Of a DNA stretch of 64,000 bases, positions 11,588 through 34,930 are shown in pieces. Source of the DNA: an uncultured Methanosarcinales archaeon (GTDB lineage Archaea; Nanobdellota; Nanobdellia; Woesearchaeales; GW2011-AR9); contig CAZGQD010000002.1 of assembly GCA_964527395.1 (NCBI GenBank), positions 24,245 to 88,244 of the forward strand. The letters are read 5' to 3'. The notes beneath the pieces are model-generated. The model worked only from the letters and a program-made list of their open reading frames with translations. It was not told the DNA's origin and searched no databases. The position numbers were made by a program, and so were the translations under genes. The stretch's first letter is position 1. The number at the start of each line of letters is the position of its first letter.

Positions 11588-11607
11588 GGGCTATCAACAT
11601 AAACCAT

Positions 11608-13500
11608 TCAAGTTCCCTCAAAATATACCTTTTTAACACCTTTTACTTTAAAAATGATTCCCAGCATTCTTGCCAATTCTTCATATTCTCTCGGAATTAC
11701 CACAAAACCACACTCTGTAAGCCCAGTCCCCACTACTTTTGCTTTTGCTTCTTTCACAGTAAACTTAGCACGCACAATTGTATTAAGTAAATCAGCAAGC
11801 AGCCCACTTCTCTCTCCAGCTACAACATTCAGCTGCAAAGGTTTACTAAAAGTCTCTTTCCAAGCTACTGGAATCCATCTATCTTTCATCTTAATAGCTT
11901 GTTTACAACCCTTCTCATTATGCACAGAGATCAGACGTTTCTTAGTAGCAACTCCAACTATAGAATCTCCTGGAATTGGTCTACAACATTTAGCAAGAAC
12001 ACAATGTGCATTTTCATAATCTGCTGCATAAGCAAGAGTATCATATACATCTGACACTGTCTTTTTAAACTGTTTATAATGCATTACTGGCAAATCACGA
12101 TACTGCTTTACCCCTTTACGAATCTTTTGCTTTGCCCGCGATGATTTCACAATTTTCAGCCAACTCAATCGAGGCTTTTGATTCTTAGATGTAACAACTT
12201 CAACTACATCTCCTTGAGACAATGAACTTCGCAGTGGCACAAACTTCCCATTTACTCTAGCTCCAACTGCTCTATTCCCTACCTGTTCATGTACAGAATA
12301 AGCAAAATCAAGTACACCTGATCCAACGGCTAGATACCGAACATCTCCTTTTGGTGTATACACATAAAATTCATCAGTAAACAAATCAACCTTAACATTT
12401 TCTAAAAACTCCTTACTACTGGCATCCTTTTGCAAATCAAGTACACCTTTTAACCAACCCATTCGCTTTTCAAATTTGATATCACTTTTGACACCTTTAT
12501 ATCTCCAGTGCGCAGCCAAACCTTCTTCAGCAAACTCATCCATTACTTCCGTACGTATTTGCACTTCAACAGGCTTCCCAGCAAGCAAAATCACTGTATG
12601 TATCGACTGGTATCCATTAGGTTTAGGGTTAGTGATATAATCCTTTAATCGACCAGAAACAGAATCATATTTCTCATGCAAATAACCTAGTACAACATAG
12701 CAATCATTCAAATCATTAACAATAACTCTAATCGCAAGGTGATCATATTGCTGACTCAAAGAGACCTTCTTTCCAACAGTTTTCTTATAAATAGAATACA
12801 AATGCTTAGGTCTACCTTTGATTTTCAAAATCTTCACTGGACAAGACAAAGACACTTCTTTCATCAACATATCAATAATATCTTGCCTCTCACTTTGCGA
12901 CTTTTCAACATACTTTTCTATTTGCGCATATCTCTTTGGCTGCAACACCAAAAACGCTTGATCTTCAAGTTGAACTTTAAGCTTCTCAACTCCTAAACGA
13001 TACGCTAGCGGTGCATAAACTAAAAGAACTTCTTCAGCAATCCTTTTTTGCTCATCAGCATCAAGTACATCTATATGCCTCAAATTATCCAGCTTAATAG
13101 CCAGTTTCACAAACAAAACTCTAGGATCCTTAAGTGTAGTAAGTAAAACCCGACGAAGTGCATCTGCTTGCAACTTATAGTTCTTCTTCTTAACTGACTT
13201 TATCGCATCTGACCCTTTAACCAAAGACAAAACATCTTTCCCAAACAAATCAAACACTTCACGCTCAGTACTATGCTTTAAAATACCATGCAAAAGCGTA
13301 GCCACCACCACTTCATATGATGCTCCAATAGATGCAACTGTTTCTGCAGCACGCAAATTATGATCATAATAACTATCCAAAGAAAGCCTCTTAACAGAAC
13401 CCAATACAGACTCAGAAAATTCACAAGCCTTTTTCAAAACACCTTGCTCTTTTTTAGAATACGAAGAAAACCAATCAAACCCCTTTACACTTGCCACCAT
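11608..13500 (-). CDS. long RelA/SpoT homologue, (p)ppGpp synthetase with degenerate hydrolase motif
   Basis: Synthetase blocks GRPKHLYSIYKK, DHLAIRVIV, NGYQSIHT, EVQIRT and AAHWRYKG. TGS block YVYTPKGDVRYL...GDVVEV, a CCRPIPGD zinc-finger block and a C-terminal ACT/RRM-like domain. The hydrolase HD motif reads LLHGILKHS instead of LLHDVvEDt. Confidence 0.9.
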   Translation of the reverse strand: MVASVKGFDWFSSYSKKEQGVLKKACEFSESVLGSVKRLSLDSYYDHNLRAAETVASIGASYEVVVATLLHGILKHSTEREVFDLFGKDVLSLVKGSDAIKSVKKKNYKLQADALRRVLLTTLKDPRVLFVKLAIKLDNLRHIDVLDADEQKRIAEEVLLVYAPLAYRLGVEKLKVQLEDQAFLVLQPKRYAQIEKYVEKSQSERQDIIDMLMKEVSLSCPVKILKIKGRPKHLYSIYKKTVGKKVSLSQQYDHLAIRVIVNDLNDCYVVLGYLHEKYDSVSGRLKDYITNPKPNGYQSIHTVILLAGKPVEVQIRTEVMDEFAEEGLAAHWRYKGVKSDIKFEKRMGWLKGVLDLQKDASSKEFLENVKVDLFTDEFYVYTPKGDVRYLAVGSGVLDFAYSVHEQVGNRAVGARVNGKFVPLRSSLSQGDVVEVVTSKNQKPRLSWLKIVKSSRAKQKIRKGVKQYRDLPVMHYKQFKKTVSDVYDTLAYAADYENAHCVLAKCCRPIPGDSIVGVATKKRLISVHNEKGCKQAIKMKDRWIPVAWKETFSKPLQLNVVAGERSGLLADLLNTIVRAKFTVKEAKAKVVGTGLTECGFVVIPREYEELARMLGIIFKVKGVKKVYFEGT

Positions 13501-13616: not shown

Positions 13617-13756
13617 AAACTCCAAAAAACCTTCAAAATCTCTTAGTTTCCAACAAAAAATACTCTCAAAAACACTAATTCATAATTAGTAAAAAAGGCC
13701 AAAAGTACTAATTACCAATGATAACCTTTATAAAGAAAAGCCCTTTTGAGACTATT

Positions 13757-15019
13757 ATGATTCAAAAAAACATCCTAAGACAGATAGTAAATAGACAAAA
13801 AAACATCAAATATCCTATTTCAAACCCTATTAAAAGAGAAATTGAAAATGAAGTACTAAAATATTTTAAAGATAATAGAATAATCATTATTACTGGCCTT
13901 AGACGTACTGGAAAATCCACTCTTTTAAGACAATTGATGCAAAAACAAGAAAATTATTGCTATTTCAACTTTGAAGAAGAAAAAATCTCAGATTTCAGAG
14001 CAGAAGATTTTGAAACTTTGAACGAAATTTTAATAGAAATCTACGGTGAATCAGACACATATTTCTTTGACGAAATCCAAAACGTTCCTAAATTTGAATT
14101 GTTTGTACGGCGCTTACAAGATCAAGGCAAAAAAATAGTCATAACTGGATCAAATGCTTCTCTTCTTAGTAAAGAATTAGGAACAAGATTAACTGGAAGA
14201 TACAAAGCCTTCGAATTATTCCCTTTTTCTTTTAAAGAATTTTTAACCTTCACAAAAAAAGACTTTCAAACAGAAGATTTATACGATACTAAAAAAATAG
14301 TCCAGCTAAAAAAATCATTCCAAAAATACCAAAAAACTGGCGGTCTACCTGGGTTTTTGCAACTAAAAGACCATGATTATGTAAAAACATTGCTTCAAAA
14401 CATTCTTTATAGAGATATAATCACCAGATACAAAATAAAAAAAGAAAAAACCATTATTGATTTAGTTATTCTTCTAACCAGCAACATATCAACATTATTT
14501 AGTTTTAATTCACTTAAAAAAACCCTTGGACTAGCTAATGCTATAACTGTAAAAGAATACATCTCATACCTATCAAACTCATACCTTTTCTTCCAATTGG
14601 AAAAACACGAATTTTCTCTAAAAAAGCAACTCATTGCTCAAAAAAAGATTTATTTAATTGATCCTATCTTTAAAATCACTTCTGGTTTTAATTTCTCAAA
14701 AAATGAAGGTAGAATTTTAGAAAACTTAGTTTTCCTACAACTTAAGAGACAAAAAAAAGAGATTTACTACCACAAAAATAAACATGAATGTGACTTTGTA
14801 ACAAAAAAAGGCTTAAAAATCACTGAAGCTATCCAAATCTGCCACATCTTAAATGAAAAAAACATGCAAAGAGAAATAAACGGTCTTTTAGAAGCTATGA
14901 AAGAACATAAACTAAAAACAGGCACCATCATAACCTTCGAACAAGAAGAAGAAATCATAAAAGAAAATAAAAAGATAAATGTTATTCCAATATACAAATA
15001 CCTCTTAAATAAAAAGTAA
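13757..15019 (+). CDS. AAA+ ATPase of the COG1373 / DUF4143 type (paralogue)
   Basis: Walker A ITGLRRTGKST, Walker B YFFDEIQ, C-terminal ECDFVT...AIQICH. The start at 13757 (MIQKNILRQIV) aligns with the paralogue's MNKEIIKQLV and lies 23-30 nt after TTTATAAA. The track ORF starts at 13718. Confidence 0.8.
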   Translation: MIQKNILRQIVNRQKNIKYPISNPIKREIENEVLKYFKDNRIIIITGLRRTGKSTLLRQLMQKQENYCYFNFEEEKISDFRAEDFETLNEILIEIYGESDTYFFDEIQNVPKFELFVRRLQDQGKKIVITGSNASLLSKELGTRLTGRYKAFELFPFSFKEFLTFTKKDFQTEDLYDTKKIVQLKKSFQKYQKTGGLPGFLQLKDHDYVKTLLQNILYRDIITRYKIKKEKTIIDLVILLTSNISTLFSFNSLKKTLGLANAITVKEYISYLSNSYLFFQLEKHEFSLKKQLIAQKKIYLIDPIFKITSGFNFSKNEGRILENLVFLQLKRQKKEIYYHKNKHECDFVTKKGLKITEAIQICHILNEKNMQREINGLLEAMKEHKLKTGTIITFEQEEEIIKENKKINVIPIYKYLLNKK

Positions 15020-15273: not shown

Positions 15274-16725
15274 TTACTTACATGTCAAAAAACCATCATC
15301 AGACTCTACACTTATATGTAAATGATTTGCATGTCCTCCTGTACTATCGCCAGTCCACAAATTCTTATCACATTTTAACTCATAATGCGATCCAGCCTTT
15401 GCATCATAAACATACTTTCCATCATCATCTTCCCTTAGAAATTCAGGACCAATTATATGCGCTTTTTCAACTCCACAAGCAGTTGCTATTTCTGCTAATT
15501 CACAAGCCTTACTTTCTTCACCAAAATCTACAGCAAGTGAATAATCATAAGATCCACACCCATAATGAGCTGAACCATGACTGTGAGCACACTTTGATTT
15601 TGACCAATCATCCCTACATTCTTCAAGACCTTCACTATCACTTAAACTAGATATTCTAGCAGCTGTTGGAGCCTGTGTTAAAGATGGATTTGCTTTAATA
15701 CCACCATCCATACATTTTAGTAAAGTTGCAAGTTCACTAGATACTTCTGATATTTGCCTATCGACTCCTGGATCAAAAGTCCACACATCCCCAATATCAG
15801 AAGAACTTTCTCCAGTTCCATAAATACCTTGGTCATCATAATGCTTATACCATCGACAATAAATATCTTCTTGAAGTTCTTCTGCATAGCTACATCCAGT
15901 TACAGCTGTTCCTGTATTATATACACAAAGTATACATTGCCACATTTTTTCTGGATCAGAATTAAAAGCATTACAATTCTTATATTTTCCACTTGTTGTA
16001 CCCATTGCATCACTATAAGCTCCAGCTAAAGTTTTTGCTGTACATTCAATTTGAGCTCTATCTGAATCAGCTGTTCCATCAGTAGGATGGTTACTACAAG
16101 AACCACTTGGCCATCCACATCCTGTCAAAGCACTCTTTGAATAACTACTTGTAGTACAACCATTATCATTTCCAAGTTGAGATTCAACTTGTGCAATAGC
16201 TCCTAATGCAGCAGGATCAATTCCTTTTTCCTCAGCAACATCCAATATAAGGTTCTTATATCTCTCATGAGATGTAGCAGTTCCTAACCATGCTAAATTA
16301 TCTAACCTTCCTGTCATTGTAGTAGTCAAACCACTTCCAGTATAACCTTCACACAAAATTTGTGGACCTAACAAATTCCCTGACCTAAAAGGAGTATCTC
16401 CACTATCATCCCCATCATCATAAGCATCACACTGGTCTGGATATTCTGAACAAAACTCTTTCCAATCTGAATCACGAAGTTCAGTGGAGCTAGGATCATA
16501 AATAGTTGTACTAGTTCTGCCAGAATTCAAAGAACCAACTTGACCCACCAAGCTAACCCACACCTTATCAATTTCAAGACAGATCTGAGTATTGTCACAT
16601 ACAATCCCTTCTACAACTTCTGCTCCTGTACTCTTTGTAAGGCTTGAATCTGCAGTAACCAAAACAAAGCTAAAGCTAACAAAAAGAAAAACTAAAAGCA
16701 CCAAAGCTATGTTTCTTTTCCTCAT
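15274..16725 (-). CDS. secreted cell-wall hydrolase-like protein: SLT (lytic transglycosylase)-like region + LAS-type (M23/M15-like) zinc peptidase motifs
   Basis: Sec signal MRKRNIALVLLVFLFVSFSFVLVTA. KGIDPAALGAIAQVESQ resembles SLT motif I with the catalytic Glu-Ser. C-terminal GSAHYGCGSYDYSLAVDF and STGGHANHLHISVE resemble the H..D and HxH zinc ligand blocks of LAS peptidases. Many Cys residues. Confidence 0.65.
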   Translation of the reverse strand: MRKRNIALVLLVFLFVSFSFVLVTADSSLTKSTGAEVVEGIVCDNTQICLEIDKVWVSLVGQVGSLNSGRTSTTIYDPSSTELRDSDWKEFCSEYPDQCDAYDDGDDSGDTPFRSGNLLGPQILCEGYTGSGLTTTMTGRLDNLAWLGTATSHERYKNLILDVAEEKGIDPAALGAIAQVESQLGNDNGCTTSSYSKSALTGCGWPSGSCSNHPTDGTADSDRAQIECTAKTLAGAYSDAMGTTSGKYKNCNAFNSDPEKMWQCILCVYNTGTAVTGCSYAEELQEDIYCRWYKHYDDQGIYGTGESSSDIGDVWTFDPGVDRQISEVSSELATLLKCMDGGIKANPSLTQAPTAARISSLSDSEGLEECRDDWSKSKCAHSHGSAHYGCGSYDYSLAVDFGEESKACELAEIATACGVEKAHIIGPEFLREDDDGKYVYDAKAGSHYELKCDKNLWTGDSTGGHANHLHISVESDDGFLTCK

Positions 16726-17300
16726 GGTAGCACCGTAACTGTATTTCTCAAAGCTGATTCTTTTGAAACAAGCGGATTCTTCATCACCAATTCCAAAGTA
16801 TAATCTCCAATCGGAGACTCATCTCCTAAAATAAAATAATCATGAAAATGCACCGTTTCTAAGCTCTCTTCTGTTCTTGCTTCATAAAGTACATCATCAG
16901 AATCATCTACTGATAACAAAAGTGACCCATCTGGTCCATACACTTGATAGTTTTCAAGCAGTTCAATTCTCCCATTCATAGCTGAACTAACCACTTCAAA
17001 GCTAAAATGCACTTCTTCTCCTAAATAAAATACATCCCGATCAACAGTACAAACTCCATCAAGTTCTTCAAGCCCACAAAATTTAAGGTTCTGCGTAACA
17101 AGCACCCCTCCAGATGATACTGGTATAAACTCCACATTAAGTAAACTCTCAGATCCACTAGCTCCAGAATCTCCCGTAGAACCTTCAACTGCAACCATCC
17201 CTGATGATACTAAAAAGAAAACTGTAGCAGACGTAAATACCACTAACACTAGTGCCGCCAGCGACTCAATCGCCAATCCTCCTTTCTTACCCATCACCAT
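16722..17300 (-). CDS. pilin-like secreted protein (class III signal-peptide-like N-terminus)
   Basis: MVMGKKGGLAIESLAALVLVVFTSATVFFLV has a basic-Gly motif followed by a hydrophobic helix. Its stop overlaps the start of 15274..16725 by 4 nt. The track start at 17321 is a GTG; ATG codons occur at 17300 and 17294. Confidence 0.55.
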   Translation of the reverse strand: MVMGKKGGLAIESLAALVLVVFTSATVFFLVSSGMVAVEGSTGDSGASGSESLLNVEFIPVSSGGVLVTQNLKFCGLEELDGVCTVDRDVFYLGEEVHFSFEVVSSAMNGRIELLENYQVYGPDGSLLLSVDDSDDVLYEARTEESLETVHFHDYFILGDESPIGDYTLELVMKNPLVSKESALRNTVTVLP

Positions 17301-17354
17301 AAACTCATCCTCATCAATCACAATATACTCTTAAAAAAGAGCACACCCCTCAAA

Positions 17355-17488
17355 GGAAATTAGCAGCGTCCCCTACTGGCAATTAAACTAAAAACAAGAA
17401 CACAACCTCAGCATTTTTCAAGCAACGACTTGAAAAATTAAAAGCGCCAAGGTTTGTACCTGCGATAAGTCTGACCCTGCTAATTTCC
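17355..17488 (+). repeat. structured palindromic element, copy B
   Basis: Closing stem GGAAATTAGCAGCGTC / GACCCTGCTAATTTCC, CTACTGGCAAT, hairpin TTTTTCAAG-CAACGA-CTTGAAAAA, TAAGTCTGAC. It begins 57 nt after the stop of the 1948-aa gene. Confidence 0.8.
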
Positions 17489-17544
17489 TGGGAATTAAAT
17501 TAATCTATACTTTTATCTTCACCAATATAATCTTCTTTTCCTAT

Positions 17545-20500
17545 TTAAGACTTACAACAAAGTTCTCTTCCATTTCCACATCCATAAGTTTCATAATTCT
17601 GATACCCATCTGCCAAATAATCAACAAAAGACTTACAAGTACTCTCATCATCAGCATTCTCAATCAACATACAACTATAGCTACTAAAGTCACTAGGCAC
17701 AGTATCTTTCAAACCAATAGTCCCTGCTGCAGACCCACAAAGTGTAGTTAATGGAACTCCAGTTGAACTACTACTTCCAGCACTTCCAGCATAACTCCTA
17801 CTTTCGTCACAGTGATATCCATTTACAGACCCTTCACCATACTTATCTGACTTACCAATCACTTTAGCAAACTGACAATTATAAGCACGAATCTTTTGAA
17901 ACTCTCCATCCTCTTGCACAGAAGAACTAAACGCCCCTAACTTCCCACCAGAAGCATCTTCTCGTAAAAAGAATCTATCTAGCATAGTTTCAACTCTACT
18001 TTTCACATCTGAAGATCCAATGTCACTATCTCCTGACTGCATTACAAGTGAAGCAATATAATAATAAATTCCCACAGCCTCATTCAAATGGCTTGGATAA
18101 GCCTCAATCAACTGCGCAGCTTCAGAAACCACTCGCGAATAATCCTTAGCTACAAAATACTCATAAATGCTGCTACTGTCACCAGTACTTACATCAATTT
18201 CATTCTTTTGCACCAAAATTGATTCTGACACAGTAACTTCTCCCAGCCCTGTATTTGCTACAGTCTGATATGCATTATAACATCCATCTGATTGATCTTT
18301 ATGCATCAAACTAAACTTAACTCCAATATTAGCCTCATCTCGACTTGTAGATTTAGCTGCACGCTGTGTTTCATATTCACACTCAGTTGTTCCAACTTTC
18401 CCAGCAGACCCAAGCACATTAGTAAATTCAAAGCCATCATATCCAAACTTAACTGCATTAATTTCAGACAATTCAAATGTACTAGTTCCAGATTTGGTCA
18501 ATTTGCCACCATCATCATCTGTAGGTTCATAACCACCAGTTAAAACAGTAACATCTTTAGGAACAGTCAACTCATATTTGTCATCAATTAGTTGATAATC
18601 AAATTCAATGTTTCTCTCACGACTAACTGTGCTTGGTACTTTCACATCTTTAAGCTCCTCACAACCTTCATGACTTCTACTAGAATCAAGTTTGATTGCA
18701 TTACTATATTCTCCAAACATTTCTGAATTAACTTTACCTAAACTAATTGTAGGTTGCATTAAACCAGCTGCTCCTGTTGGAATTGTCAAAATCTGATCAT
18801 CAGCCTGCACTCCAGCACCATTCACATCCATTTTCATACAATACCCTGCCCCATCTGTATAAATTGAAGGTCGTACAGTAATATCATCTTCATCTAAGAA
18901 CAAATTTGGTGTCTCACAATCAAGCCATAAACCAGTTTTGTCATCATAACACTGAATATAAGGTGCTTGGAAATAACTAAGTCCTTCTTCTCCATAAAAG
19001 ATACTACTAAGCCCTGGACATGAAAAAGTCCCATCTGTTTGTGTATAACAAGTACCAATGTCACAATCATAAGTTGCATCTGTACTTAATCCAGCTGAAC
19101 ACTCAAAGACTCCAGGAGCACTGTTATCCTTAATCGGGTAATAGAACTTACCACCAGTTGAAGTCTTATACCCTTCTTCAAAACAATTATCTATATCTGC
19201 TTTTGTTGTATCTACATTTAATTCTAACACAACGTGGTCATATCTATAATGTGAATTAATTCTTTGCGGCATTTGCATTTGGATATCTACAAGTTCACCT
19301 GAGTTCACGTAACTAACTGAACTTCCTCCATCTAAATAATAGACTTTCTCATTCTCAAACTGTGAATTCCCTGTTGCTGTTAAACAATCACAACCTTCAC
19401 CATCACAACTTGTATCAACTCCCGGATTCCCTTGATCTTCTGGTCCAATACATTTCAAATAAGTTTTATAGTTATCTATCGGACAGCCAGCAGAGAATAC
19501 AGCTCCAACTTTGTAGTTATATACAGCTGTAAGCCCTTGCGGATCATAGTTACTAAACACTCTTTCTTTAGGATAAACGAGTGGATAACTTTTTGTTTCA
19601 ATTGTCAAAGCAGCTTCTGCGAATGCATCTAAACCAAGTGGAAAATCATAACCAAACGCAGCAAGACAAATACTTTGCGCAATACCTTGTGCTCCTCCTC
19701 CAAAATACTGACTTAGAACAGCATCTCCATAATCATCTTGCATATCATCTATAGTACTTTGAAGTCCAGGTTCAATACTGGAACTAAAATCAGCAACTTT
19801 TCCATCAAATAAACTTCCTTCTTTACCAAAATCACCAAAACCATAAGGTGAACATTGGTTTGACGCAAACGTAATTGCTTTATAAACCAAACCACAGACA
19901 TGCTGTGAAAAGATTTGCTTACACATCCCCATATCTTGAAACTCAGTATACTTAGCTTCTACTGCGCAAGTTCGTAAACCATCTAAAATACCTCTAAGCA
20001 TAGTAAACTGTCCCCAGATATTCTCCAAACACATAGTTTGATACGCGCTCAAAAACTGTGTATTAGGGTCAATCATTGCAACTTTCTTATTCTCTGCTGT
20101 ACGAAGCATATCAAGTGCATAATCTTGTCCAAAAGCTGCACTAAAGTCACGTTCTTTGTAATACCTTTTATCTGAATAATATGTTCCAAATTTACTATTA
20201 CTCTCAGAAAAGACTTGATCTTGTCTGTAATGATACTCTTCAGTAGCTCCTGATTCTTCATCTTTACGAACAGCTTCACGAACTGTATAAACTTTATCTT
20301 CACTTCCTTTTTTAGGCTCACATACACACTGATAGAATTCTAAATCATCTCCAATAAAACAATCACTAGAATAACCCGCATAAAACAATTCACCACTTAA
20401 CTGCTGACCATTAGCATCAACTAACTCTCCTTTAACATGACCTCTTTCTGTAACAGCTCCTGTTTGATTGAAACAAGTAGCAACTTTAGCATCATCTGTT

Positions 20501-23391
20501 TTTATTGGATCAAACCCAGTATGTCCTGACTTACCTGCTCCATGACCTAAAGCTGTATAACCTGGCTTTCTAGGATTCTCACAAATTTGCTGACATGTTT
20601 CTGATCTAGCTCCACAAAACCCTTCTGTTCCTGGTGCTTGATAAACTTGAATTTTATCAACAACTGTACCTGCCCCAATTGCTGTAAGACCTTTATCAAT
20701 AACTTCTAATTCATAAATTCCTTTAGCTTCATCAATTGCCTTACTATTCCTATACAAAGTAGCAGAGATTGTAGTCCCTGACTGTTTATATTCTTCTGGA
20801 ACTAAATAACAAGTATCTCCTGGAATCTCCAAATCACTAATATCTTCACTTAACGCATACCCATCTACATTATTTTTAACATACTTCTGACAATTCTCTA
20901 CTTCCTCAAGCGGAATACAAGCCCCTGTAGCCCCACACTGTTTCTGCTCTAAAATCACTGACTGAATTTCATCTTCTGTTTTAGTTTCTGTCCATCTAGC
21001 AGGCGAACTATGACAAAAGGTTCTGTCACATGTCCATCTGTAAGCTTTCTCTAGCCGACTCTCAAGCTCCCACAACCTAGCAGTGTTCGGGCAATAATCA
21101 TCAAGAATCTTACTTTGATAATCTTCTGGCAACTTATGATTAGGAGCATTAATCTCAGGATGACCAGCTTCTATCAATTTATCCCAGCTTTCAATAGTAC
21201 TCTCTAAAAACAATTGATTTTGTAAAACTCCAACTGGACAAGCATCTTCCTCTCCTCCAGCAAGCTTTTCAATAGTTCCAGCTACCCCTTCAGTCTTAGA
21301 AACAGTAAACCGAAGTATCCGAACCACAACTTTGCTACCAAAAGACAAATAACATCCAATAGAAGTCAATCGAACAGCCTTCTCTAAGTAAGGGAGTACC
21401 TTATCAATCTTCTCAATAGTCCATGTAGTTGAATCAATCACGCCTTGAAGCAATTTGTCAGCCTTCAAATCTTCAATATCAAGAGGAGCATCTACAAAAT
21501 AAGATAAATCATAACAACTTGTTTGAGTCTTTGAAGATCCTAATGCACCATTTGCATCACGTTCTTGATAATTCACAGTAACTTGTAGTGGAAAAACAAT
21601 CATTCTGTCACTATACATATTCCAATAACTCTCATCACTATCACTATAATCTTCTGTAGGCGCTAAATTCCAAGAAAGGTAATGCGAAGTCTTAGCTCCA
21701 TTTGAAGCTACTTTAGGTTCGTTAGGCAAAATCGCACATCCAACTCCAAACTCATCATCTACCATGCTTTGGGTACACGCTTTCTCAAACCTAACTGAAT
21801 TAATTTGATATGCTGCATCTGTTTCAGACCCAGTTGATAAATCACTTGTTGCACTACCTTGCCCTTGATAGTCCATTGTAAAAATAGCAGTCACTTGCTC
21901 TCTACCTTCATCAAGCAATGTCGGATCAAGCTTCAACGGCAACTGATAATTAGGATCATCTGCAATCAAAAAATCAAAATCGGTAGAATAACAACTGTTC
22001 ACAATAACTTGGTCTTTAAAATACCCTGCCTTTCCACTTGCATCTACTGCAATAATATAGATATAATATGAAAAACTTGTAGCTGACCCTGCTGAACTAA
22101 CTCCATTAATTACTTCATTTTCAAGTCCAGATGGAACTACATTAACTGCAAAATCATCTAAAGAAAAAGCTCCACCATTTTTTAAATTCACATTACTAAA
22201 CACAAACTTCCCTTCAGAATCAGCCTCAACCATATCAAAAACATCACTTTCACTAAAAGTCAACTGCTGATCATAAGTCAATGTTCTATAAACATACAAA
22301 TAAACTTCCGCGCCAGCTTCAGTCTCTCCAAATATATCTGTTTCAGCTCTGTTTTGGTAATACTCTTTTCCTTTACTAAATTCAGCAGAAACTGTCGGTT
22401 CTTTTGTATCTGATACTACTTCAGCTTCAACCTTAGAAGAAAGCCCAACTAAATCTGTAGCAACTACAACAATAGAATTCTCTCCTTCCTCAAGCGAAAC
22501 AGACTCAGAAAACCCACCAGCACTTTCCAAAGAAACAGAAATCTTCTCTTCACCATTTACAGTAACCAAAACCTCGCTAGCTTCATCTACATTTCCACTG
22601 ATATCAATAGATTTCTCAGACGTATAAGAAGAAATTGTATCAACAACTAAAGTAGGATGACTATTGTCACTAACAACTGTCACGCTATATTCTTCTAACT
22701 GATCTCCAAGGCTAGCTTCTAAGCTAACAACATTACTTTCTCCAGCAACAAGTGGTGCATTTGATATTGCAAAAAGCCCATCTGTCCCTACAACATCCTT
22801 AGCAAAATAACCACCATTTACATATAATCTTACTTCAGTTCCATACGCAGCTGACCCTGTAACTGTAATAGAATCTCCTGCGATAAGTTCATCAATTTCA
22901 TCAACTTGTAAATTTATACTAGCAGAATAATCAACTTCTTCACTACTAGTATCTTCTTCACCAGAATCAGCCTCTTCACTCTCACTTGTATCTTCAGTCT
23001 CCTCAGCAGCATCTGTTGTAAAACTATAATATGATCCAGAATTGTCATCCAAAACCTCTTCATCCCCAGCTACACTCATCACCGAATAATAATATTCAGT
23101 CCCTCCTTCCAAACCACTAATATCAAACTCATGCGAAGTCACTGCATCTGAACTAGAAACCTCTAAATCTAAATTAGTTGCATCTGTTCCATAAAACACA
23201 GTCCCTGAAGCCTCTTCATCTGTCTCCCATGAAACTGTAGCTGTAGAAGAACCAACATTGGAACTAGCAGTATCACTAATACTAAGCGCATACGTTATTG
23301 GCAGGTTTAAAAACAAAACTACTACAAACACTGCAAAAAACCTAGTCCAATTCTCCTTACTTTTTCCAAATACCATTACAATACCATTCAC
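17545..23391 (-). CDS. giant secreted Cys-rich surface protein (1948 aa) with N-terminal FN3-like and Ig-like domains
   Basis: Uninterrupted 5.8-kb ORF with signal peptide FFAVFVVVLFLNLPITYALS. FN3-like STATVSWETDEEASGTVFYGTD...YYYSV. Repeated Ig-like segments (ITVTGSAAYGTEVRLYVNG, IDISGNVDEASEVLVTVNG, FGETEAGAEVYLYVY). Then about 1400 aa rich in Cys, Gly, Asp and Tyr. Confidence 0.85.
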   Translation of the reverse strand: MNGIVMVFGKSKENWTRFFAVFVVVLFLNLPITYALSISDTASSNVGSSTATVSWETDEEASGTVFYGTDATNLDLEVSSSDAVTSHEFDISGLEGGTEYYYSVMSVAGDEEVLDDNSGSYYSFTTDAAEETEDTSESEEADSGEEDTSSEEVDYSASINLQVDEIDELIAGDSITVTGSAAYGTEVRLYVNGGYFAKDVVGTDGLFAISNAPLVAGESNVVSLEASLGDQLEEYSVTVVSDNSHPTLVVDTISSYTSEKSIDISGNVDEASEVLVTVNGEEKISVSLESAGGFSESVSLEEGENSIVVVATDLVGLSSKVEAEVVSDTKEPTVSAEFSKGKEYYQNRAETDIFGETEAGAEVYLYVYRTLTYDQQLTFSESDVFDMVEADSEGKFVFSNVNLKNGGAFSLDDFAVNVVPSGLENEVINGVSSAGSATSFSYYIYIIAVDASGKAGYFKDQVIVNSCYSTDFDFLIADDPNYQLPLKLDPTLLDEGREQVTAIFTMDYQGQGSATSDLSTGSETDAAYQINSVRFEKACTQSMVDDEFGVGCAILPNEPKVASNGAKTSHYLSWNLAPTEDYSDSDESYWNMYSDRMIVFPLQVTVNYQERDANGALGSSKTQTSCYDLSYFVDAPLDIEDLKADKLLQGVIDSTTWTIEKIDKVLPYLEKAVRLTSIGCYLSFGSKVVVRILRFTVSKTEGVAGTIEKLAGGEEDACPVGVLQNQLFLESTIESWDKLIEAGHPEINAPNHKLPEDYQSKILDDYCPNTARLWELESRLEKAYRWTCDRTFCHSSPARWTETKTEDEIQSVILEQKQCGATGACIPLEEVENCQKYVKNNVDGYALSEDISDLEIPGDTCYLVPEEYKQSGTTISATLYRNSKAIDEAKGIYELEVIDKGLTAIGAGTVVDKIQVYQAPGTEGFCGARSETCQQICENPRKPGYTALGHGAGKSGHTGFDPIKTDDAKVATCFNQTGAVTERGHVKGELVDANGQQLSGELFYAGYSSDCFIGDDLEFYQCVCEPKKGSEDKVYTVREAVRKDEESGATEEYHYRQDQVFSESNSKFGTYYSDKRYYKERDFSAAFGQDYALDMLRTAENKKVAMIDPNTQFLSAYQTMCLENIWGQFTMLRGILDGLRTCAVEAKYTEFQDMGMCKQIFSQHVCGLVYKAITFASNQCSPYGFGDFGKEGSLFDGKVADFSSSIEPGLQSTIDDMQDDYGDAVLSQYFGGGAQGIAQSICLAAFGYDFPLGLDAFAEAALTIETKSYPLVYPKERVFSNYDPQGLTAVYNYKVGAVFSAGCPIDNYKTYLKCIGPEDQGNPGVDTSCDGEGCDCLTATGNSQFENEKVYYLDGGSSVSYVNSGELVDIQMQMPQRINSHYRYDHVVLELNVDTTKADIDNCFEEGYKTSTGGKFYYPIKDNSAPGVFECSAGLSTDATYDCDIGTCYTQTDGTFSCPGLSSIFYGEEGLSYFQAPYIQCYDDKTGLWLDCETPNLFLDEDDITVRPSIYTDGAGYCMKMDVNGAGVQADDQILTIPTGAAGLMQPTISLGKVNSEMFGEYSNAIKLDSSRSHEGCEELKDVKVPSTVSRERNIEFDYQLIDDKYELTVPKDVTVLTGGYEPTDDDGGKLTKSGTSTFELSEINAVKFGYDGFEFTNVLGSAGKVGTTECEYETQRAAKSTSRDEANIGVKFSLMHKDQSDGCYNAYQTVANTGLGEVTVSESILVQKNEIDVSTGDSSSIYEYFVAKDYSRVVSEAAQLIEAYPSHLNEAVGIYYYIASLVMQSGDSDIGSSDVKSRVETMLDRFFLREDASGGKLGAFSSSVQEDGEFQKIRAYNCQFAKVIGKSDKYGEGSVNGYHCDESRSYAGSAGSSSSTGVPLTTLCGSAAGTIGLKDTVPSDFSSYSCMLIENADDESTCKSFVDYLADGYQNYETYGCGNGRELCCKS

Positions 23392-23398
23392 TCTTCAT

Positions 23399-25576
23399 CT
23401 AATCTTCCGCCACAACTTCAGGTGACCCAATTAATTCACTATAATATTCCAAATCTGATAAAAACAAATAATAATTTTCATCGCTCGGATCTAATTCTAA
23501 TACATGAAACACAACAGATCTCCCTTCTTTTGTAGAAAGTGAGCTATCAATCATCCATTTTCCATCATATCCACCCATCAAATACTCATCTGTTGTAATT
23601 ATAATATCAACTTCATACTCAAAATTAGCTTCAGAAAGTACATTTACGAATGCATCAGACAATAAACCATCTTCACTTTCTAAACTAGTATAAATGAACT
23701 TTTCTTCATGTAATGTCTCTCTGTTATCAAAAACTCCTAAGATATCAAGCTCTTCTTCACTATAAGAATCCTCAGACTCAGCATCCTCGCCACTTTCCCC
23801 CTCACTTGATTCAGTAGTTTCTCCACCAGCTACATCACTACCAACAACATCCTCAGCAAACAACTTAAGTGTTACAAGTGCAGTCTCATCTTCATCCATT
23901 TCTTCTTCAAACTCTGCAATTTCTACACAAAGTCCATTTTTGTCAGGCTCATCATCACCACGGCAAGTATCAACATCTAATCTATGCTTAATTATAGAAA
24001 TATCAGACACTGGAAAAGAATAAAGCGGCCGCAAATTCAAACTAACTTCAGTTCCTTCTACAGCTGGTACAAACTCATTAGCTGGCAAATAACCTTCTTT
24101 TTCTCCAGTTACAATCCCTCCAGCACAATACGGAAACAACTGTGTCATTCCAGCAGCGTTACCCATACCTTCAAAATCATACTCAGTCACACCTAACTCA
24201 CATGAATACTTTAAACATGTATAACTTAAATTCACATCTGATAATGGTTCAGTTGCATACACTCCTGTTCCACTATTTTCAACTAAACTGTTAGTAAACA
24301 CTGTCATCGGTACTGTATAAGAATTTTCTAAGCAAAACTCTTCTTCATAATTGCTTGTTGGCGCAAATTCTGACTCACGAGCATAAACTTGCCCACCACG
24401 GTTACCATAATTAGACAACAAATGTACAGAAACTGCATATTGTAAAGTTACTCCACTTGCATCATCAGTCACTTGAACTAAAACAGGAAAAACAGCATCA
24501 TAAGTAAACTTCCAATTTTGTATACACACAAAGTTAAGCAAATCCTGTCCACCAAGTTGGTTAGACATCATTTTATCTCCACTTCGCGGTGTAACTTGAA
24601 ATGTAAAAGGATAATTAGATTCATACCTAAAAACTACTGAAAGATCATCATCATCTACTCCATCAACTCCCCATTCGTAATGGTTTTGATAATAAGGTTC
24701 AAGGTCTCCATAAGACACAAACTGTGTCCCTTCAACCCGCAAATTTCGCATATTCACACGAAGCATTTCCTTTAGAGTATCTTCAGCAGTTGAAGCACTC
24801 CACTGCTTTTTGCTACAGCTTAGTTCAGTTCCAACAACAGGCAAATCTTCATGTTCCATAGCAATCATATCTTGCGTTAAATCTTCAAGCTTCAATTCAT
24901 CAAGTTCAGCATCAAGTATCAGTGATGCACTGTCATACATTGACTTAAATGGCACTGAACTTTCTGCAACATGCTCAATTACTTCTGCAACTGTCTCACC
25001 TGACTTATCCATAATTAACAAATTCCACCTAACATTAAATTCTGTTTTAGAATCTAAAAACTGTGTATCTGCAAAAATATCACTATTCTCTGTCAAATCA
25101 TATTCAACTGAAAATGCATCTGATTCAAACAAACAATCTCGCACATTTTCTTCAATATAAGAATCAATTTCATTTTTGATCACATCAATACTTGGCCTAT
25201 CTTCTAAATTCCCATAAGCCCAAAGTGGCACATCCATAAAATCACTAAGTGGTAAATGCCAATTGATATCCTCACTAAAACGCTCAGGAACTTCAATGTA
25301 CCCACCTTGCAAACCTGCAATGTACAAAGCCTCCTCACCAACGCCTTGGATACATGCTGTCACAAAATTCTCTACTTTACCTTTGTCTGTAGAAAAAGTC
25401 GCTTCTGCTCCAAACGAAACTACTTCTGATCGAAGTACAAGAATTAAAGCAACAGAAATAAGCAAAACAAGTCCTACAATAATAAAAATAGTAACTTGTC
25501 CTTTTTTAGAATTAGATAACAATCCAGCTAAAGCTTTAGAGCTAACTCTACCTCCATTCACCTCTGTTGTATGCAT
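23399..25576 (-). CDS. large secreted/anchored protein with pilin-like (class III signal-like) N-terminus
   Basis: From the ATG at 25576: MHTTEVNGGRVSSKALAGLLSNSKKGQVTIFIIVGLVLLISVALILVL. TTTATATA lies 25-32 nt upstream. The track's extra 56 N-terminal codons (to 25744) come from low-complexity A/C-rich DNA and overlap repeat copy C. The stop is 7 nt before the start of the 1948-aa gene. Confidence 0.7.
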   Translation of the reverse strand: MHTTEVNGGRVSSKALAGLLSNSKKGQVTIFIIVGLVLLISVALILVLRSEVVSFGAEATFSTDKGKVENFVTACIQGVGEEALYIAGLQGGYIEVPERFSEDINWHLPLSDFMDVPLWAYGNLEDRPSIDVIKNEIDSYIEENVRDCLFESDAFSVEYDLTENSDIFADTQFLDSKTEFNVRWNLLIMDKSGETVAEVIEHVAESSVPFKSMYDSASLILDAELDELKLEDLTQDMIAMEHEDLPVVGTELSCSKKQWSASTAEDTLKEMLRVNMRNLRVEGTQFVSYGDLEPYYQNHYEWGVDGVDDDDLSVVFRYESNYPFTFQVTPRSGDKMMSNQLGGQDLLNFVCIQNWKFTYDAVFPVLVQVTDDASGVTLQYAVSVHLLSNYGNRGGQVYARESEFAPTSNYEEEFCLENSYTVPMTVFTNSLVENSGTGVYATEPLSDVNLSYTCLKYSCELGVTEYDFEGMGNAAGMTQLFPYCAGGIVTGEKEGYLPANEFVPAVEGTEVSLNLRPLYSFPVSDISIIKHRLDVDTCRGDDEPDKNGLCVEIAEFEEEMDEDETALVTLKLFAEDVVGSDVAGGETTESSEGESGEDAESEDSYSEEELDILGVFDNRETLHEEKFIYTSLESEDGLLSDAFVNVLSEANFEYEVDIIITTDEYLMGGYDGKWMIDSSLSTKEGRSVVFHVLELDPSDENYYLFLSDLEYYSELIGSPEVVAED

Positions 25577-25600
25577 ACACAAACTTAAAGTGAAAAAACG

Positions 25601-25608
25601 TATATAAA
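25601..25608 (-). promoter_or_regulatory. TATA box for 23399..25576
   Basis: The - strand reads TTTATATA, 25-32 nt upstream of the ATG at 25576. Confidence 0.45.
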
Positions 25609-25733
25609 CCTTTGCGAATTTGAAACAAAAAACAAGAAAAAAACAACTTAAAAGAGCATAAAAACACAAAAAAACAAAACAAAAAACAAATCCAAATAAT
25701 AAAAAATATACGCAAAAACAAAAAACAATAACA

Positions 25734-25852
25734 GCACTGTCCACTCACTGGCACTCCCATTCAAAACAAGACCTAAACAACGAGCATTTTTCAAGCAGCG
25801 ACTTGAAAAATTAAAAGCGAAGTGGTCACGCTTGCAGTAAGTCTGACAGTGC
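25734..25852 (+). repeat. structured palindromic element, copy C (compact form)
   Basis: Closing stem GCACTGTC / GACAGTGC, CACTCACTGGCAC, CAAGACCTAAACAACGAGCATTTT, hairpin TTTTTCAAG-CAGCGA-CTTGAAAAA, AAAGCGAAGTGGTCACGCTTGC, TAAGTCTGAC. It begins 83 nt after the stop of 25935..27116. On the - strand it is followed by T-runs (TTTTTTGTTTTTG). Confidence 0.85.
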
Positions 25853-25934
25853 GACAAAAAAAGAGAAATCAAAAGAAAACAAAAGAAAGGAAATCAAAAT
25901 CAAACAACAAAAAGAATCTAGAATCAAAAGGACC

Positions 25935-27116
25935 TCAAGAAGCATCTCTTTGCTGATAAGCTTCAACAAAAGCATCAAATCTCTGAATTAGCTGTTTTCC
26001 AGTTTCAACCTCATTATAATGATTTTTATAACTAGCAAAATCTGTTAAAACAACTACTGTCGAAAGTGCTCTATCGAGATCTTCTTCAGAAAAATCTTTT
26101 GATGCATCTGCATGCTTCATATCCCACCTACTTTTATCATGTTTCCATCCTTCTCTTCTAAAAAATTTAGAAAGAACTTTTCTTCTTTCTTCTCCAACTC
26201 TCCCTTTTGTTCCTAATTCCCAAGTAACTCTATAATTTCCCTTAATTGAATTATAAAAAACATCTATGTAAAAATTATCATCACTTGCAAAGCTAGGAGT
26301 AGTTACAAAAGACGCATTTGTATCAGTAAAAAAACCTCCAACAATGTCTCCTGTGATCGCTGATCCACTCCCCCCATAAGTTGAATAAGGATCTTGTTTA
26401 ATCTCATTGAAAACAACATTAAAATCATTTAAAGAATTTAACATATTCTTAACCATAAGCATCCTTGGGTCTACTTTTATCCCATCAGTTGCAAAATAAG
26501 CTACTCTTTTATACGGAGTATACTTCCCTGCGCCTGGATGGCGCCTAGGTCCACCCATAACAATGCTATTAAAATTATGATAAAAATGTCCATGAATTTC
26601 TCTTACAAATTCTTCAAAAGTTTCTGGAACCCAAAACTTTGTTCTACTTCTACCTGACAGAATCCCACTAAATTCAGCTAAACTTAACTTAACTCTTTCA
26701 TTTGGTAATCTATAGCCCATTTTAGCACTAAATTCTACTTGTTGCATAGCTGACCTAAAATTAGAATCTAAAGTTCCAAGATACTTATCAAAATCTTTCC
26801 CTCTTTGCCAACAATACATCCCATTTCTGTAAGGTCTTTCTGGATTCAAAAAAGGATTATCTGCTAAATTTATCATCTCTTCAATTCCAGAACGAACCAC
26901 ATCATAAGTATCAGAGAACATATTCCTCCTATGAGCCATATGTCCAGATAAAACAGCAGTAGCATTACCATTCAATTCATTTATTCCCCTTATAACAGAA
27001 CTATTTAGTTCATGAAACCTCTCATAATTACTTATCAATCTTCCAAAACTAGAAACATTTTCAACTACTAACTCAATTCCCACAAAAAAACCCCATATTA
27101 AACTATTTATAAGCAT
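25935..27116 (-). CDS. hypothetical protein (393 aa)
   Basis: Long ORF heading the surface-protein gene run. No motif recognised. Confidence 0.6.
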   Translation of the reverse strand: MLINSLIWGFFVGIELVVENVSSFGRLISNYERFHELNSSVIRGINELNGNATAVLSGHMAHRRNMFSDTYDVVRSGIEEMINLADNPFLNPERPYRNGMYCWQRGKDFDKYLGTLDSNFRSAMQQVEFSAKMGYRLPNERVKLSLAEFSGILSGRSRTKFWVPETFEEFVREIHGHFYHNFNSIVMGGPRRHPGAGKYTPYKRVAYFATDGIKVDPRMLMVKNMLNSLNDFNVVFNEIKQDPYSTYGGSGSAITGDIVGGFFTDTNASFVTTPSFASDDNFYIDVFYNSIKGNYRVTWELGTKGRVGEERRKVLSKFFRREGWKHDKSRWDMKHADASKDFSEEDLDRALSTVVVLTDFASYKNHYNEVETGKQLIQRFDAFVEAYQQRDAS

Positions 27117-29374: not shown

Positions 29375-29873
29375 TAAAGCTGTTTTCGATACAGGGCCAT
29401 TTATTCATCTAGATGACATAAATTCTATAAAATTATTAAGATTATTCAAACTAATTTTAACAACAAAAGAAATTCTTGAAGAATCAAGAGAGCTTAAAGA
29501 AACTATTTTATCAACAAAAAACATCAAAATAAAAAAACTAAGCTCAAAAAACAAAAATTTCAGTAAAGCCCTATGTGAAATTTACGAAATTCATTTAGGT
29601 GAAGCAACAGCAATTTCTCTTTGCAAACAAGAAAAAGTAAAACTTTTTTTCACAGATGATCTAGATGCACGTAAAACTGCAAAAAATTTAGGCCTAAAAG
29701 CTCATGGAACAATAGCAATTATACTAAAATCTTTAAAAAATAACTTAATTAATAAAAAACAAGCTTTTTCACTTGTAGAAAATCTTTACCACAATTCAAG
29801 TTTATTTTTAACTGAAAAGCTTTTCAAATTTGTTTGTGCAAGTATTGATAAATTCAAACAAAAAAACATCTAA
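29361..29873 (+). CDS. PIN-like (DUF3368-type) putative toxin
   Basis: N-terminal VFDTGPFIHL (acidic PIN motif). GEATAISLCKQEKVKLFFTDDLDARKTAKNLGLKAHGTIAIIL matches the GEAEAI...DD..AR..A..G....GT pattern. Confidence 0.65.
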   Translation: MKRISKAVFDTGPFIHLDDINSIKLLRLFKLILTTKEILEESRELKETILSTKNIKIKKLSSKNKNFSKALCEIYEIHLGEATAISLCKQEKVKLFFTDDLDARKTAKNLGLKAHGTIAIILKSLKNNLINKKQAFSLVENLYHNSSLFLTEKLFKFVCASIDKFKQKNI

Positions 29874-34791: not shown

Positions 34792-34930
34792 GGAAGAAAA
34801 GGACGCCGTCTCTTACTGGCAATTACATCCAACTCAAGACTTAAACAACGAGCATTTTCCAAGTCATGCTTGGAAAATTAAAAGCGAAGTGGTCACGCCT
34901 GCTCTAGATCTGACCGCGCCTTTTCCTTCC
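34792..34930 (+). repeat. structured palindromic element, copy D
   Basis: Closing stem GGAAGAAAAGGACGCCGTC / GACCGCGCCTTTTCCTTCC, CTTACTGGCAAT, CAAGACTTAAACAACGAGCATTTT, hairpin TTTTCCAAG-TCATG-CTTGGAAAA, AAAGCGAAGTGGTCACGCCTGC. It lies in a convergent intergenic region, 80 nt after the HAD gene stop and 63 nt after the stop of the transglutaminase-like gene. Confidence 0.85.

Follow-up and report, generated by a model that had tools for sequence, protein, structure and literature searches.

The DNA considered here is a stretch of 64,000 nucleotides (nt), referred to throughout as the 64-kb window, from contig CAZGQD010000002.1 of assembly GCA_964527395.1 (positions 24,245 to 88,244), and its main feature of interest is a run of four adjacent genes, here named A, G, C and D. 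The order of these genes is conserved in related genomes, with overlapping stop and start codons, and every version of D, which encodes a secreted enzyme, keeps a non-catalytic tag of ∼45 amino acids (aa) that is found only next to the trio A-G-C. The catalytic domains that accompany the tag are exchanged between species and, judged by domain family, are predicted to be mostly peptidoglycan-degrading, making D a polymorphic hydrolase. All four products are predicted to be exported, A and C by class III (prepilin-like) N-termini and G and D by Sec signals. We lean towards the view that A, G, C and D form a single co-transcribed, lineage-wide cassette of Woesearchaeota-type DPANN archaea and that this cassette makes a device directed against bacterial walls.

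Gene order and conservation

The original prediction, made from the window alone, described an operon-like surface module of five open reading frames (ORFs) pairing pilin-like and giant secreted proteins with a secreted hydrolase. The five ORFs are real, all lie on the minus strand and have the coordinates first given for them:

25935-27116, minus strand: gene for a 393-aa protein, upstream of A
23399-25576, minus strand: gene A, 725 aa from ATG 25576 (the mechanical ORF extends to 25744, giving 781 aa from a GTG)
17545-23391, minus strand: gene G, 1948 aa from a GTG start (alternative ATG 23376, 1943 aa)
16722-17300, minus strand: gene C, 192 aa from ATG 17300 (199 aa from a GTG, to 17321)
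15274-16725, minus strand: gene D, encoding a 483-aa secreted enzyme, termed the cargo

The tight junctions that had been described were also found, with a gap of 7 nt between A and G (23392-23398) and an overlap of 4 nt between the stop of C and the start of D (16722-16725). The shorter starts given for A (725 aa) and C (192 aa) are right. The ATG at 25576 is supported by the homologues of A, which have only 20-35 residues before their KKGQ motif, and the 56 extra codons of the 781-aa ORF are a T-rich artefact. A TATA-like box, TTTATATA, lies at 25601-25608 on the minus strand, ∼28 nt upstream of this ATG, and from general knowledge of archaeal promoters we take it to be a candidate archaeal TATA box. 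The products of A, G, C and D are all strongly acidic (isoelectric points 4.1-4.5). When the five proteins were searched against Pfam and NCBIfam, only the FN3-like and Ig-like domains of G were recognised and the other four proteins gave no match.

Examination of the neighbourhoods of six homologues showed the same A-G-C order followed by a hydrolase gene of changing Pfam family. The downstream enzymes carried SLT, M23 with Amidase_2, DUF2272 with lysozyme and FGE-like domains, or Exo_endo_phos/GDSL together with a second protein bearing Amidase_2, and one lacked any Pfam match. Relatives in 121 genomes, giving 76 loci, were found when one genome per species was scanned with the full alignment of G, a single-protein search with its variable C-terminal third having given nothing. 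The census was made on 78 non-identical loci using hidden Markov models (HMMs) of the cassette genes built from their own alignments. The general order is A (∼660-730 aa), G (1,750-2,300 aa), C (∼190 aa) and then the enzyme. Wherever there was enough sequence, A was directly upstream of G (66/66 loci), and C followed G in 57 of 68 loci, all 11 misses belonging to a divergent clade with ∼25% identity to G. Within the main clade, C followed G in every one of the 57 loci with enough sequence. A tagged enzyme was present in 50 of the 52 main-clade loci that have C and at least 3 kb downstream, its start lying within 100 nt of the C stop in 45 loci, typically as a 4-nt overlap; several of the others have an enolase gene separating the enzyme from C. 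Of the two loci that gave no match to the tag HMM, one has in its place a protein with a degenerate motif (EDIDSVW) and the other a 3082-aa secreted protein. The latter (L058:16432-25679) occupies the enzyme position and runs to the end of the locus, and a lysozyme-like 'ES' helix motif can be seen by eye in its N-terminal region. In the divergent clade (L071-L082, for example L081:8007-16745 and L082:8107-17616), G is 2000-2300 aa long, the A-G pair is kept and the third gene, in place of C, codes for a conserved protein of 256-289 aa whose N-terminus forms a membrane helix (…SLKESF…).

This gene arrangement is far beyond chance. The synteny check suggested for the module shows the four-gene order to be kept across Woesearchaeota-type genomes, which strengthens the operon-like module as first drawn, and the profile searches gave none of its genes a housekeeping role. 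The 393-aa gene, which had been counted as a member, is a different matter. It has no homologue in any of the 78 related loci, and the position upstream of A is variable and taken by unrelated genes in the relatives, so this gene is placed outside the set.

The tag and the enzymes that carry it

The window enzyme consists of a signal peptide (aa 1-25), the tag (aa 41-98), a lysozyme-like domain (aa 115-305) and a domain resembling the LAS (lysostaphin/D-Ala-D-Ala carboxypeptidase/Sonic hedgehog N) peptidases (aa 315-483), and it contains 22 Cys (4.6%):

16432-16605, minus strand: tag module, aa 41-98 of D (VCDNTQICLEIDKVWVSL…DWKEFCSEY)
15811-16383, minus strand: lysozyme-like domain (GH23/g-type/glucosaminidase-superfamily-like), presumed catalytic Glu at aa 182 (…AIAQVESQLG)
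15277-15783, minus strand: LAS-type zinc domain (Hedgehog-N/DD-peptidase-like; …CAHSHGSAHYGC…LAVDFGEE…HANHLHISV)

The tag was found by eye on comparing seven otherwise unrelated downstream enzymes. Its family consensus over ∼45 aa is C-x5-C-x-EID-x-VW-(x12-16)-VWD-x5-W-x2-F-x3-Y, with variants of the form C-x5-C-x-[ED]-I-D-x-[VA]-W allowed, and it is located after the signal peptide in short enzymes and between the catalytic domains in long ones. No Pfam family matched it in the window enzyme or in 50 tagged proteins. Regular-expression and iterated HMM searches of the window and ∼1.5 Mb of related flanks located the tag only in the gene or genes after C; a second or third tagged gene sometimes follows within 5 kb downstream on the same strand. 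The pattern CxEIDEVW alone, run against 241 million metagenome records, gave 21 confirmed loci. Two of these start at a contig edge, and in all of the 19 that could be assessed the gene just upstream is C, preceded by G and A as far as the contig extends. This 19/19 result indicates that the tag, at least in this variant of its motif, is specific to the cassette. A word-indexed search of 5.8 billion proteins with a seven-sequence alignment of the tag gave 11 candidates and one match, a search that is insensitive for a tag so short and variable.

Identity between tags was also compared with identity between the corresponding A proteins, and the two are correlated (Mantel rho 0.56, reached by 0 of 999 permutations). 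Outside the tag, ∼80% of enzyme pairs share <2% of their 4-mers once A identity is <60%. The correlation of tag with A is consistent with a functional pairing but not decisive, since common descent inflates such correlations.

The nature of the cargo was examined by running Pfam on the 50 tagged proteins. FGE-sulfatase-like domains were the most frequent (16 proteins), followed by Lipase_GDSL_2 (10), DUF2272 (9), Peptidase_M15_4 and Phage_lysozyme2 (6 each), Amidase_2 and SLT (5 each), Metallophos (4), DUF218 and M23 (3 each) and Exo_endo_phos, Glucosaminidase, Hydrolase_2 and VanY (2 each). Differences extend to the nearest relatives of the window, which have Glucosaminidase with the same LAS domain (L010), VanY (L002), M23 with Amidase_2 (L005) or M15_4 (L011). 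Where a secreted cell-wall hydrolase had been proposed as the last gene, a peptidoglycan-directed or related hydrolase is always found, but its family changes.

For the lysozyme-like domain of the window enzyme, the Glu at aa 182 is invariant in the Cys-rich lysozyme-like family to which it belongs. A single-sequence phmmer search matched goose lysozyme on the catalytic helix at E = 0.25, a five-sequence profile matched four g-type lysozymes at E ∼0.1, and a 27-sequence profile matched a cell-wall hydrolase of phage origin (8yxk) at E = 0.003, the profile matches to g-type lysozymes falling at E 0.1-0.3. The PDB matches all align on the helix that bears the catalytic Glu, and by jackhmmer the domain is tied to a relative that Pfam assigns to SLT. 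A few homologues of this domain in the protein library use PG_binding_1 or PG_binding_3 instead of the tag.

The LAS-type domain has many homologues in a library of 1.84 billion proteins, with the motifs C-A-H, S-x-H-Y-G, A-V-D and H-x-H-[IV]-S invariant (28-48 homologues). It has no Pfam match and is not a member of Pfam M15 or M23; filing it under M15 was tried and rejected, an hhalign comparison with the VanY-type M15 alignment from related loci being not significant (probability <1%). An untrimmed alignment searched against the PDB produced spurious matches to G-protein-coupled receptors from the transmembrane pilin part of the homologues, and the trimmed domain was used instead. The trimmed profile gave 23 matches, all to Hedgehog N-terminal domains at E 0.04-1, and the alignment spans both zinc-ligand motifs, H-Y-x-G-R-A-V-D and H-[IV]-H-[CV]-S-V. 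As the Hedgehog N-domain is the 'S' of the LAS family, this supports the LAS call made originally. The lytic-transglycosylase-like and LAS-metallopeptidase-like motifs thus survive profile comparison (E 0.003; the 23 Hedgehog matches), and with moderate confidence the window enzyme can be described as a putative lysozyme-like plus LAS protein.

A separate observation concerns the library homologues of the LAS-type domain, 35 of 47 of which, among those scanned (P0157-P0250), have T4SS_pilin (PF18895) at the N-terminus, most being joined to this pilin domain and not to a lysozyme. T4SS_pilin is reported to represent the VirB2-like pilins of Patescibacteria, the candidate phyla radiation (CPR) (PMC12102498). 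These proteins suggest a pilin-hydrolase fusion in CPR bacteria and a possible exchange of domains between CPR bacteria and DPANN archaea.

The exported partners and their genomic setting

The 725-aa protein A begins with a class-III-type signal/anchor, …SKKG/QVTIFIIVGLVLLISV, where the slash separates positions -1 and +1, followed by alpha/beta domains and several beta-sandwich domains. Its homologues fall into 121 clusters, all unnamed and none with a Pfam domain. Among 58 family members the N-terminal consensus is [KR][KR][GA]/Q-V-T-I-F-I-I-L-G… with the hydrophobic stretch QVTIFIILGILLLL; K or R at -3/-2 and G or A at -1 occur in 57/58 and Gln at +1 in 58/58. In the 192-aa protein C, a prepilin-like N-terminus, MVMGKKG/GLAIESLAALVLVVFTSATVFFLV…, precedes a beta-rich domain of ∼130 aa for which only a weak MG2/Ig-like match was obtained (E = 0.046). 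N-termini of C were recovered by regular expression from 48 of 59 distinct family members, and all 48 have a basic leader, [KR]-[GA] and ∼20 hydrophobic residues with a 'TSA' motif. Glu is at +5 in all but one, where it is at +4. The class III-like N-termini that had been noticed in the 725-aa and 192-aa proteins are therefore real features, conserved across both families. As used here for A and C, 'pilin-like' refers to the signal-peptide and N-terminal helix motif alone.

An AlphaFold2 model of A built from 62 sequences has a mean predicted local distance difference test (pLDDT) score of 85 and shows a membrane helix (residues 25-52), a low-confidence linker (53-61), a second helix (63-88), an alpha/beta region and about four beta-sandwiches. 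Foldseek searches of the model against the PDB and BFVD found no global relative (template modelling (TM) score ≤0.17) and no pilin among the matches, and the model has no recognisable pilin head. Matches to SdrD, cohesin, carboxypeptidase-regulatory-like and phage baseplate proteins were rejected as fold-level noise from generic strings of beta-sandwiches, and those to SbsB were insignificant.

In the giant protein G, a Sec signal peptide (aa 1-35, family pattern …NLPI[VT][ST]A/L) is followed by three regions:

23014-23259, minus strand: FN3-like domain of G, aa 45-126 (Pfam/NCBIfam)
to ∼aa 465, minus strand: Ig-like domains of G, with Glucodextran_B/Big_13 at aa 246-329
17548-21996, minus strand: Cys-rich core of G, aa 466-1948

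This architecture is as originally described. All 50 Cys of G come after aa 465, where they make up 3-4% of residues, compared with a Cys content of 1.07% elsewhere in the ORFs of the window. Full-length homologues at 33-54% identity were found only in records titled archaeon, Nanoarchaeota or Woesearchaeota. The core has hundreds of invariant or near-invariant positions, ∼40 of them Cys, and many invariant Cys, Trp and Gly lie between aa 466 and ∼1520. No Pfam, NCBIfam or PDB sequence match was found for it. An AlphaFold2 model of aa 470-1665 from 18 sequences was poor (pLDDT 57), and Foldseek with this low-confidence model returned nothing meaningful and no propeller. Kinship with RHS/YD proteins was considered and rejected, RHS proteins matching the Ig-like segment only (5-12% coverage). 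Altogether, A, C and the core of G match no known family or fold.

The two palindromic elements noted in the two larger gaps of the module are copies of a structured repeat:

17350-17495, minus strand: repeat copy in the G-C gap
25732-25854, minus strand: repeat copy upstream of A
11366-11590, 34799-34926 and 54809-54885, minus strand: further copies, found with a model built from the cassette pair

The repeat is ∼120-145 nt long with the core CGCTTTTAATTTTTCAAGTCGYTGCTTGAAAAATGCT. The two cassette copies share an identical 37-nt core containing a hairpin with an 11-bp stem and are predicted to fold stably (z = -5.7 and -3.1), and the outer closing stems differ between copies and still pair. 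Two related, structured elements do sit in the two larger gaps, but a special role in the module was not borne out, since at least five copies occur across the window, all intergenic and all on the minus strand, and none was found in related genomes. They are a genome-specific dispersed repeat, not a module-specific one. Comparison with Rfam gave nothing credible, and the repeat could be an element like a miniature inverted-repeat transposable element (MITE) or a repetitive extragenic palindrome (REP), or a small structured RNA family. In the relatives, G and C overlap or are at most 139 nt apart, usually <60 nt, and the 223-nt spacer of the window is accordingly explained as an inserted copy of the repeat. 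A 168-aa ORF at 29870-30376 (minus strand) aligns with no more than the C-terminal two-thirds of the model for IS200-like Y1 transposases, and this fragment might be connected with how the hairpin-bearing repeats spread.

The window is archaeal, DPANN/Woesearchaeota-like DNA from a very small groundwater archaeon, and its contig is also recorded as metagenome scaffold ENA ERZ23498945 (SUTE22-1). An archaeal host is indicated by genes for a replication factor C (RFC) small subunit with an intein, an aRF1/Pelota-type factor, ribosomal protein S8e and TrmB regulators. Cys- and Phe-tRNA synthetases are encoded as well, the G+C content is ∼34%, and the GC skew is uniformly negative throughout. No tRNAs or Rfam families were found in the 64 kb. 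All relatives of the cassette proteins belong to records with the titles archaeon, Nanoarchaeota, Nanoarchaeia or Woesearchaeota, and one automated batch titled 'uncultured Methanosarcinales' is taken to be a labelling artefact.

Several neighbouring genes deserve mention. An enolase gene is found repeatedly, either just behind the cassette or separating C from the enzyme (L002, L004, L005, L006, L063 and others), and RelA/SpoT, NUDIX, glyceraldehyde-3-phosphate dehydrogenase (GAPDH) and cysteinyl-tRNA synthetase (CysRS) are conserved neighbours in relatives. An AAA_14/DUF4143 ATPase gene, oriented the other way (13718-15019), occupies the place of enolase in the window and has a paralogue at 9088-10344. 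RelA/SpoT-type enzymes are uncommon in archaea; the window has a full-length (p)ppGpp synthetase/hydrolase of this type at 11608-13500 (minus strand) with HD, RelA_SpoT, TGS and ACT domains, and its position next to the cassette is kept in relatives. The intein of the RFC small subunit gene (37164-40028, plus strand) is large and contains LAGLIDADG and winged-helix segments. At 48650-54063 (minus strand) lies a second group of exported proteins, none with a Pfam match. It includes a 697-aa protein, a 404-aa protein whose N-terminus is class-III-like (DKKA/QAAGAAAVLLAIVMAMMIG) and a pair of paralogues with lipobox-like signals (…LSSCSG), a third copy of which is at 44294-45226 (minus strand) and a homologue at L011:235-1203.

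Proposed function, alternatives and known systems

The reading that we judge somewhat more probable than its alternatives taken together is that the cassette builds a surface scaffold displaying exchangeable peptidoglycan hydrolases against bacteria. A and C would remain in, or be extracted from, the membrane by their pilin-like helices, serving either as anchors or as minor tip subunits of a type-IV-like filament, with its motor genes located elsewhere. They would hold the giant, disulfide-rich G, whose FN3/Ig stalk and core might touch the target cell, and the tag would capture secreted D on this scaffold so that the enzyme does not diffuse away. Upon contact with a bacterium the tethered enzyme would cut glycan strands and peptide cross-links, two activities that in the window enzyme might be supplied by the lysozyme-like domain and the LAS peptidase respectively. 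The local opening of the wall could permit attachment, access to nutrients or killing, and exchange of the catalytic domains while the tag stays constant would be an adaptation to different bacterial walls. An archaeon without peptidoglycan would need no immunity protein. Attachment and wall breaching, and with them the episymbiotic lifestyle proposed originally, are what we infer from this arrangement. It is possible, and we suggest it tentatively, that the pilin-anchored giant scaffold represents a previously unrecognised archaeal machine for contact-dependent, cross-domain attack or feeding on bacteria. If true, most Woesearchaeota would live on or prey on bacteria, not archaea.

A number of results weigh against this proposal. 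The divergent clade has no hydrolase or tagged enzyme after A-G, and retention of the pair there indicates that A-G has a function independent of the hydrolase. In A, position +5 is Phe in 58/58 family members (Tyr in some others), not Glu; Glu at +5 is not required in all archaeal pilins. The modelled A has a flexible linker after its membrane helix instead of a continuous pilin helix. The ATPase, platform and signal peptidase III of type-IV filaments were not found in the window or the inspected flanks, T2SSE, T2SSF and Peptidase_A24 giving no match in window ORFs of at least 100 aa or in the called genes of six related loci, so that the absence of an ATPase or prepilin peptidase, as first reported for the module, extends by Pfam to the 64-kb window. 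No homologue of known function was found for A, C or the core of G, and 'adhesin' and 'scaffold' as roles for G are guesses from its architecture, given that its structure could not be confidently predicted. FGE-sulfatase-like, Metallophos and Exo_endo_phos cargo are not obviously wall-directed, and the lysozyme and LAS calls depend on E values of 0.003 and 0.04 with no Pfam match in the window protein.

In the main alternative, A-G-C would be a general envelope structure, an S-layer-like coat or a spike on which envelope integrity depends, rather than an apparatus dedicated to attack, with the tag anchoring the enzyme to the archaeon's own surface in the manner of SLH or other wall-anchoring modules, an alternative that we regard as unlikely while giving it real weight. 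Conservation of the housekeeping neighbourhood (CysRS, enolase, RelA/SpoT and GAPDH), the occurrence of the cassette once per locus, the strong purifying selection on the G core at 33-54% identity and the hydrolase-free A-G pair of the divergent clade would all fit such a structure. The combination of a large secreted protein with a membrane-anchored partner is typical of archaeal S-layers, SlaA and SlaB being such a pair. However, S-layer proteins are usually fast-evolving and are not rich in Cys, the tag is carried by the enzyme or enzymes right behind the trio and by no other secreted protein in 1.5 Mb, and overlapping start and stop codons bind the enzyme to C. The difference from the bacteria-directed scaffold is also mainly one of emphasis, tethering of the hydrolase being common to both.

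If the tag were instead a substrate-targeting domain for peptidoglycan or the bacterial surface, like LysM, SH3b or PG_binding_1, it would make no contact with A, G or C, and its adjacency to the trio would reflect only the co-regulation of factors needed on the same occasion. Small non-catalytic wall-binding modules are common on cell-wall hydrolases, the N-terminal or inter-domain position of the tag is where such modules are found, and some lysozyme-like homologues have PG_binding_1 or PG_binding_3 in its stead. A general binding domain would, however, be expected elsewhere, including in bacteria, whereas the motif-only metagenome search returned the trio in all 19 cases that could be assessed and the word-indexed search of 5.8 billion proteins, though insensitive, found essentially nothing else. 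The tag also accompanies phosphoesterase, nuclease-like and esterase domains, and its sequence co-diverges with A. This explanation is considered rather improbable.

Very unlikely, in our estimation, is a role towards an archaeal host or the organism's own kind (bridging, fusion or DNA uptake), in which the hydrolase clears debris or scavenges murein. DPANN archaea with known hosts are attached to other archaea, type-IV-like filaments mediate archaeal DNA uptake and adhesion, and the esterases and phosphoesterases among the cargo would suit scavenging. Most of the cargo, however, is of families cutting murein-specific bonds (MurNAc-L-Ala amidases, DD-/LD-peptidases and lytic transglycosylases), and bulk scavenging needs no tight coupling to a surface scaffold. 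Archaeal homologues of peptidoglycan hydrolases are, according to PMC12352652, mostly not from producers of pseudomurein. Finally, a degraded provirus or mobile element with G as tail fibre or receptor-binding protein and D as endolysin or virion-associated lysin, as might be suggested by low-TM matches of A to phage structural/baseplate proteins, the phage hydrolase as best PDB match of the lysozyme-like profile and the mobile-type genes nearby (the IS200-like Y1 transposase fragment, AAA_14/DUF4143 and RhuM), is close to refuted, because genes for a capsid, portal, terminase or integrase were not found, the chromosomal surroundings are conserved with a divergence across at least 121 species that looks vertical, murein hydrolases are useless to an archaeal virus and TM ≤0.17 reflects generic beta-sandwiches.

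Returning to the scaffold bearing hydrolases against bacteria, its value lies in being a concrete and testable candidate, present across the lineage, for the means by which DPANN archaea, the very widespread Woesearchaeota among them, recognise and exploit their partners. The cargo would be a natural collection of wall-degrading domains, the specificities of which could point to the bacteria being targeted, and a source of new disulfide-stabilised peptidoglycan hydrolases. A, C, the G core and the tag, absent from Pfam and uncharacterised, are targets for structure determination.

Previous work has considered the enzymes themselves. PMC12352652 reports that peptidoglycan hydrolases are enriched in Nanoarchaeota and that some archaeal ones kill bacteria, and PMC9723730 reads GH23 genes in Woesearchaeota metagenome-assembled genomes as 'vampiristic' or predatory. 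Both accordingly concern the same gene content, secreted murein hydrolases of Nanoarchaeota/Woesearchaeota, read as directed against bacteria; as far as keywords in these papers reveal, enzymes are listed singly and neighbourhoods, operons, pilins and pili are not mentioned. In a 2026 preprint, archaeal type-IV-filament systems have been classified and SPIII-bearing binding proteins proposed to functionalise them (bioRxiv 10.64898/2026.04.22.720090). No description of the A-G-C-enzyme cassette or of the tag was found in the literature searched, which was incomplete. The cassette would add a layer of organisation to the archaeal bacteriolytic enzymes, making them the swappable cargo of a conserved surface structure.

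At the level of single domains, the window enzyme keeps the His…Asp and His-x-His ligands of the LAS peptidases, and its middle domain keeps the catalytic Glu helix of g-type lysozymes/GH23, but both domains are too divergent for Pfam and unusually Cys-rich. At the level of the whole cassette, three known systems invite comparison. The minor-pilin/PilY1 operons of type IV pili likewise lack a motor and combine prepilin-type N-termini with a very large Sec-exported protein that is not a pilin, and PilY1 systems and the Sulfolobus bindosome share with the cassette the idea of pilin-like subunits carrying a functional load to the cell surface. However, the cassette proteins have no likeness in sequence or structure to PilY1, GspK-type minor pilins or bindosome proteins, the C-terminal beta-propeller of PilY1 (PilY1/PilC domain) was not found in G, A is much larger than any pilin, and none of the known tip complexes carries an exchangeable wall hydrolase.

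The cellulosome shares the logic of a surface-anchored scaffold recruiting diverse hydrolases by one small tag. The tag here is not a dockerin, as it has no duplicated calcium-binding loop-helix, its consensus shows no repeated Asp/Asn-rich loops, and D, A and G have no Dockerin or Cohesin Pfam match. One beta-sandwich of A does match type II cohesins weakly (TM 0.35-0.38 over ∼105 residues), a level typical of beta-sandwiches. Cellulosomes also recruit dozens of enzymes, compared with the one or two encoded at each cassette locus.

With the polymorphic effectors (LXG proteins of type VII secretion, MIX- and PAAR-linked effectors of type VI secretion, and contact-dependent inhibition (CDI)/Rhs proteins), the cassette shares a constant module joined to swapped catalytic domains, an effector encoded beside the genes of its apparatus and the envelope of another cell as the likely target. 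It differs in using an ordinary Sec signal, in an apparatus unrelated to any secretion system and in a module that is internal or N-terminal. Nor was a cognate immunity gene found, the genes after the enzyme being enolase, RelA/SpoT, NUDIX and others with no small conserved partner, an absence that would be explained by the lack of murein in the producing archaeon. While no component of the cassette is homologous to those of tip complexes, polymorphic effectors or the cellulosome, its organisation suggests that it belongs with the tagged-enzyme scaffolds and polymorphic effectors in kind, probably as a version of them built from uncharacterised families.

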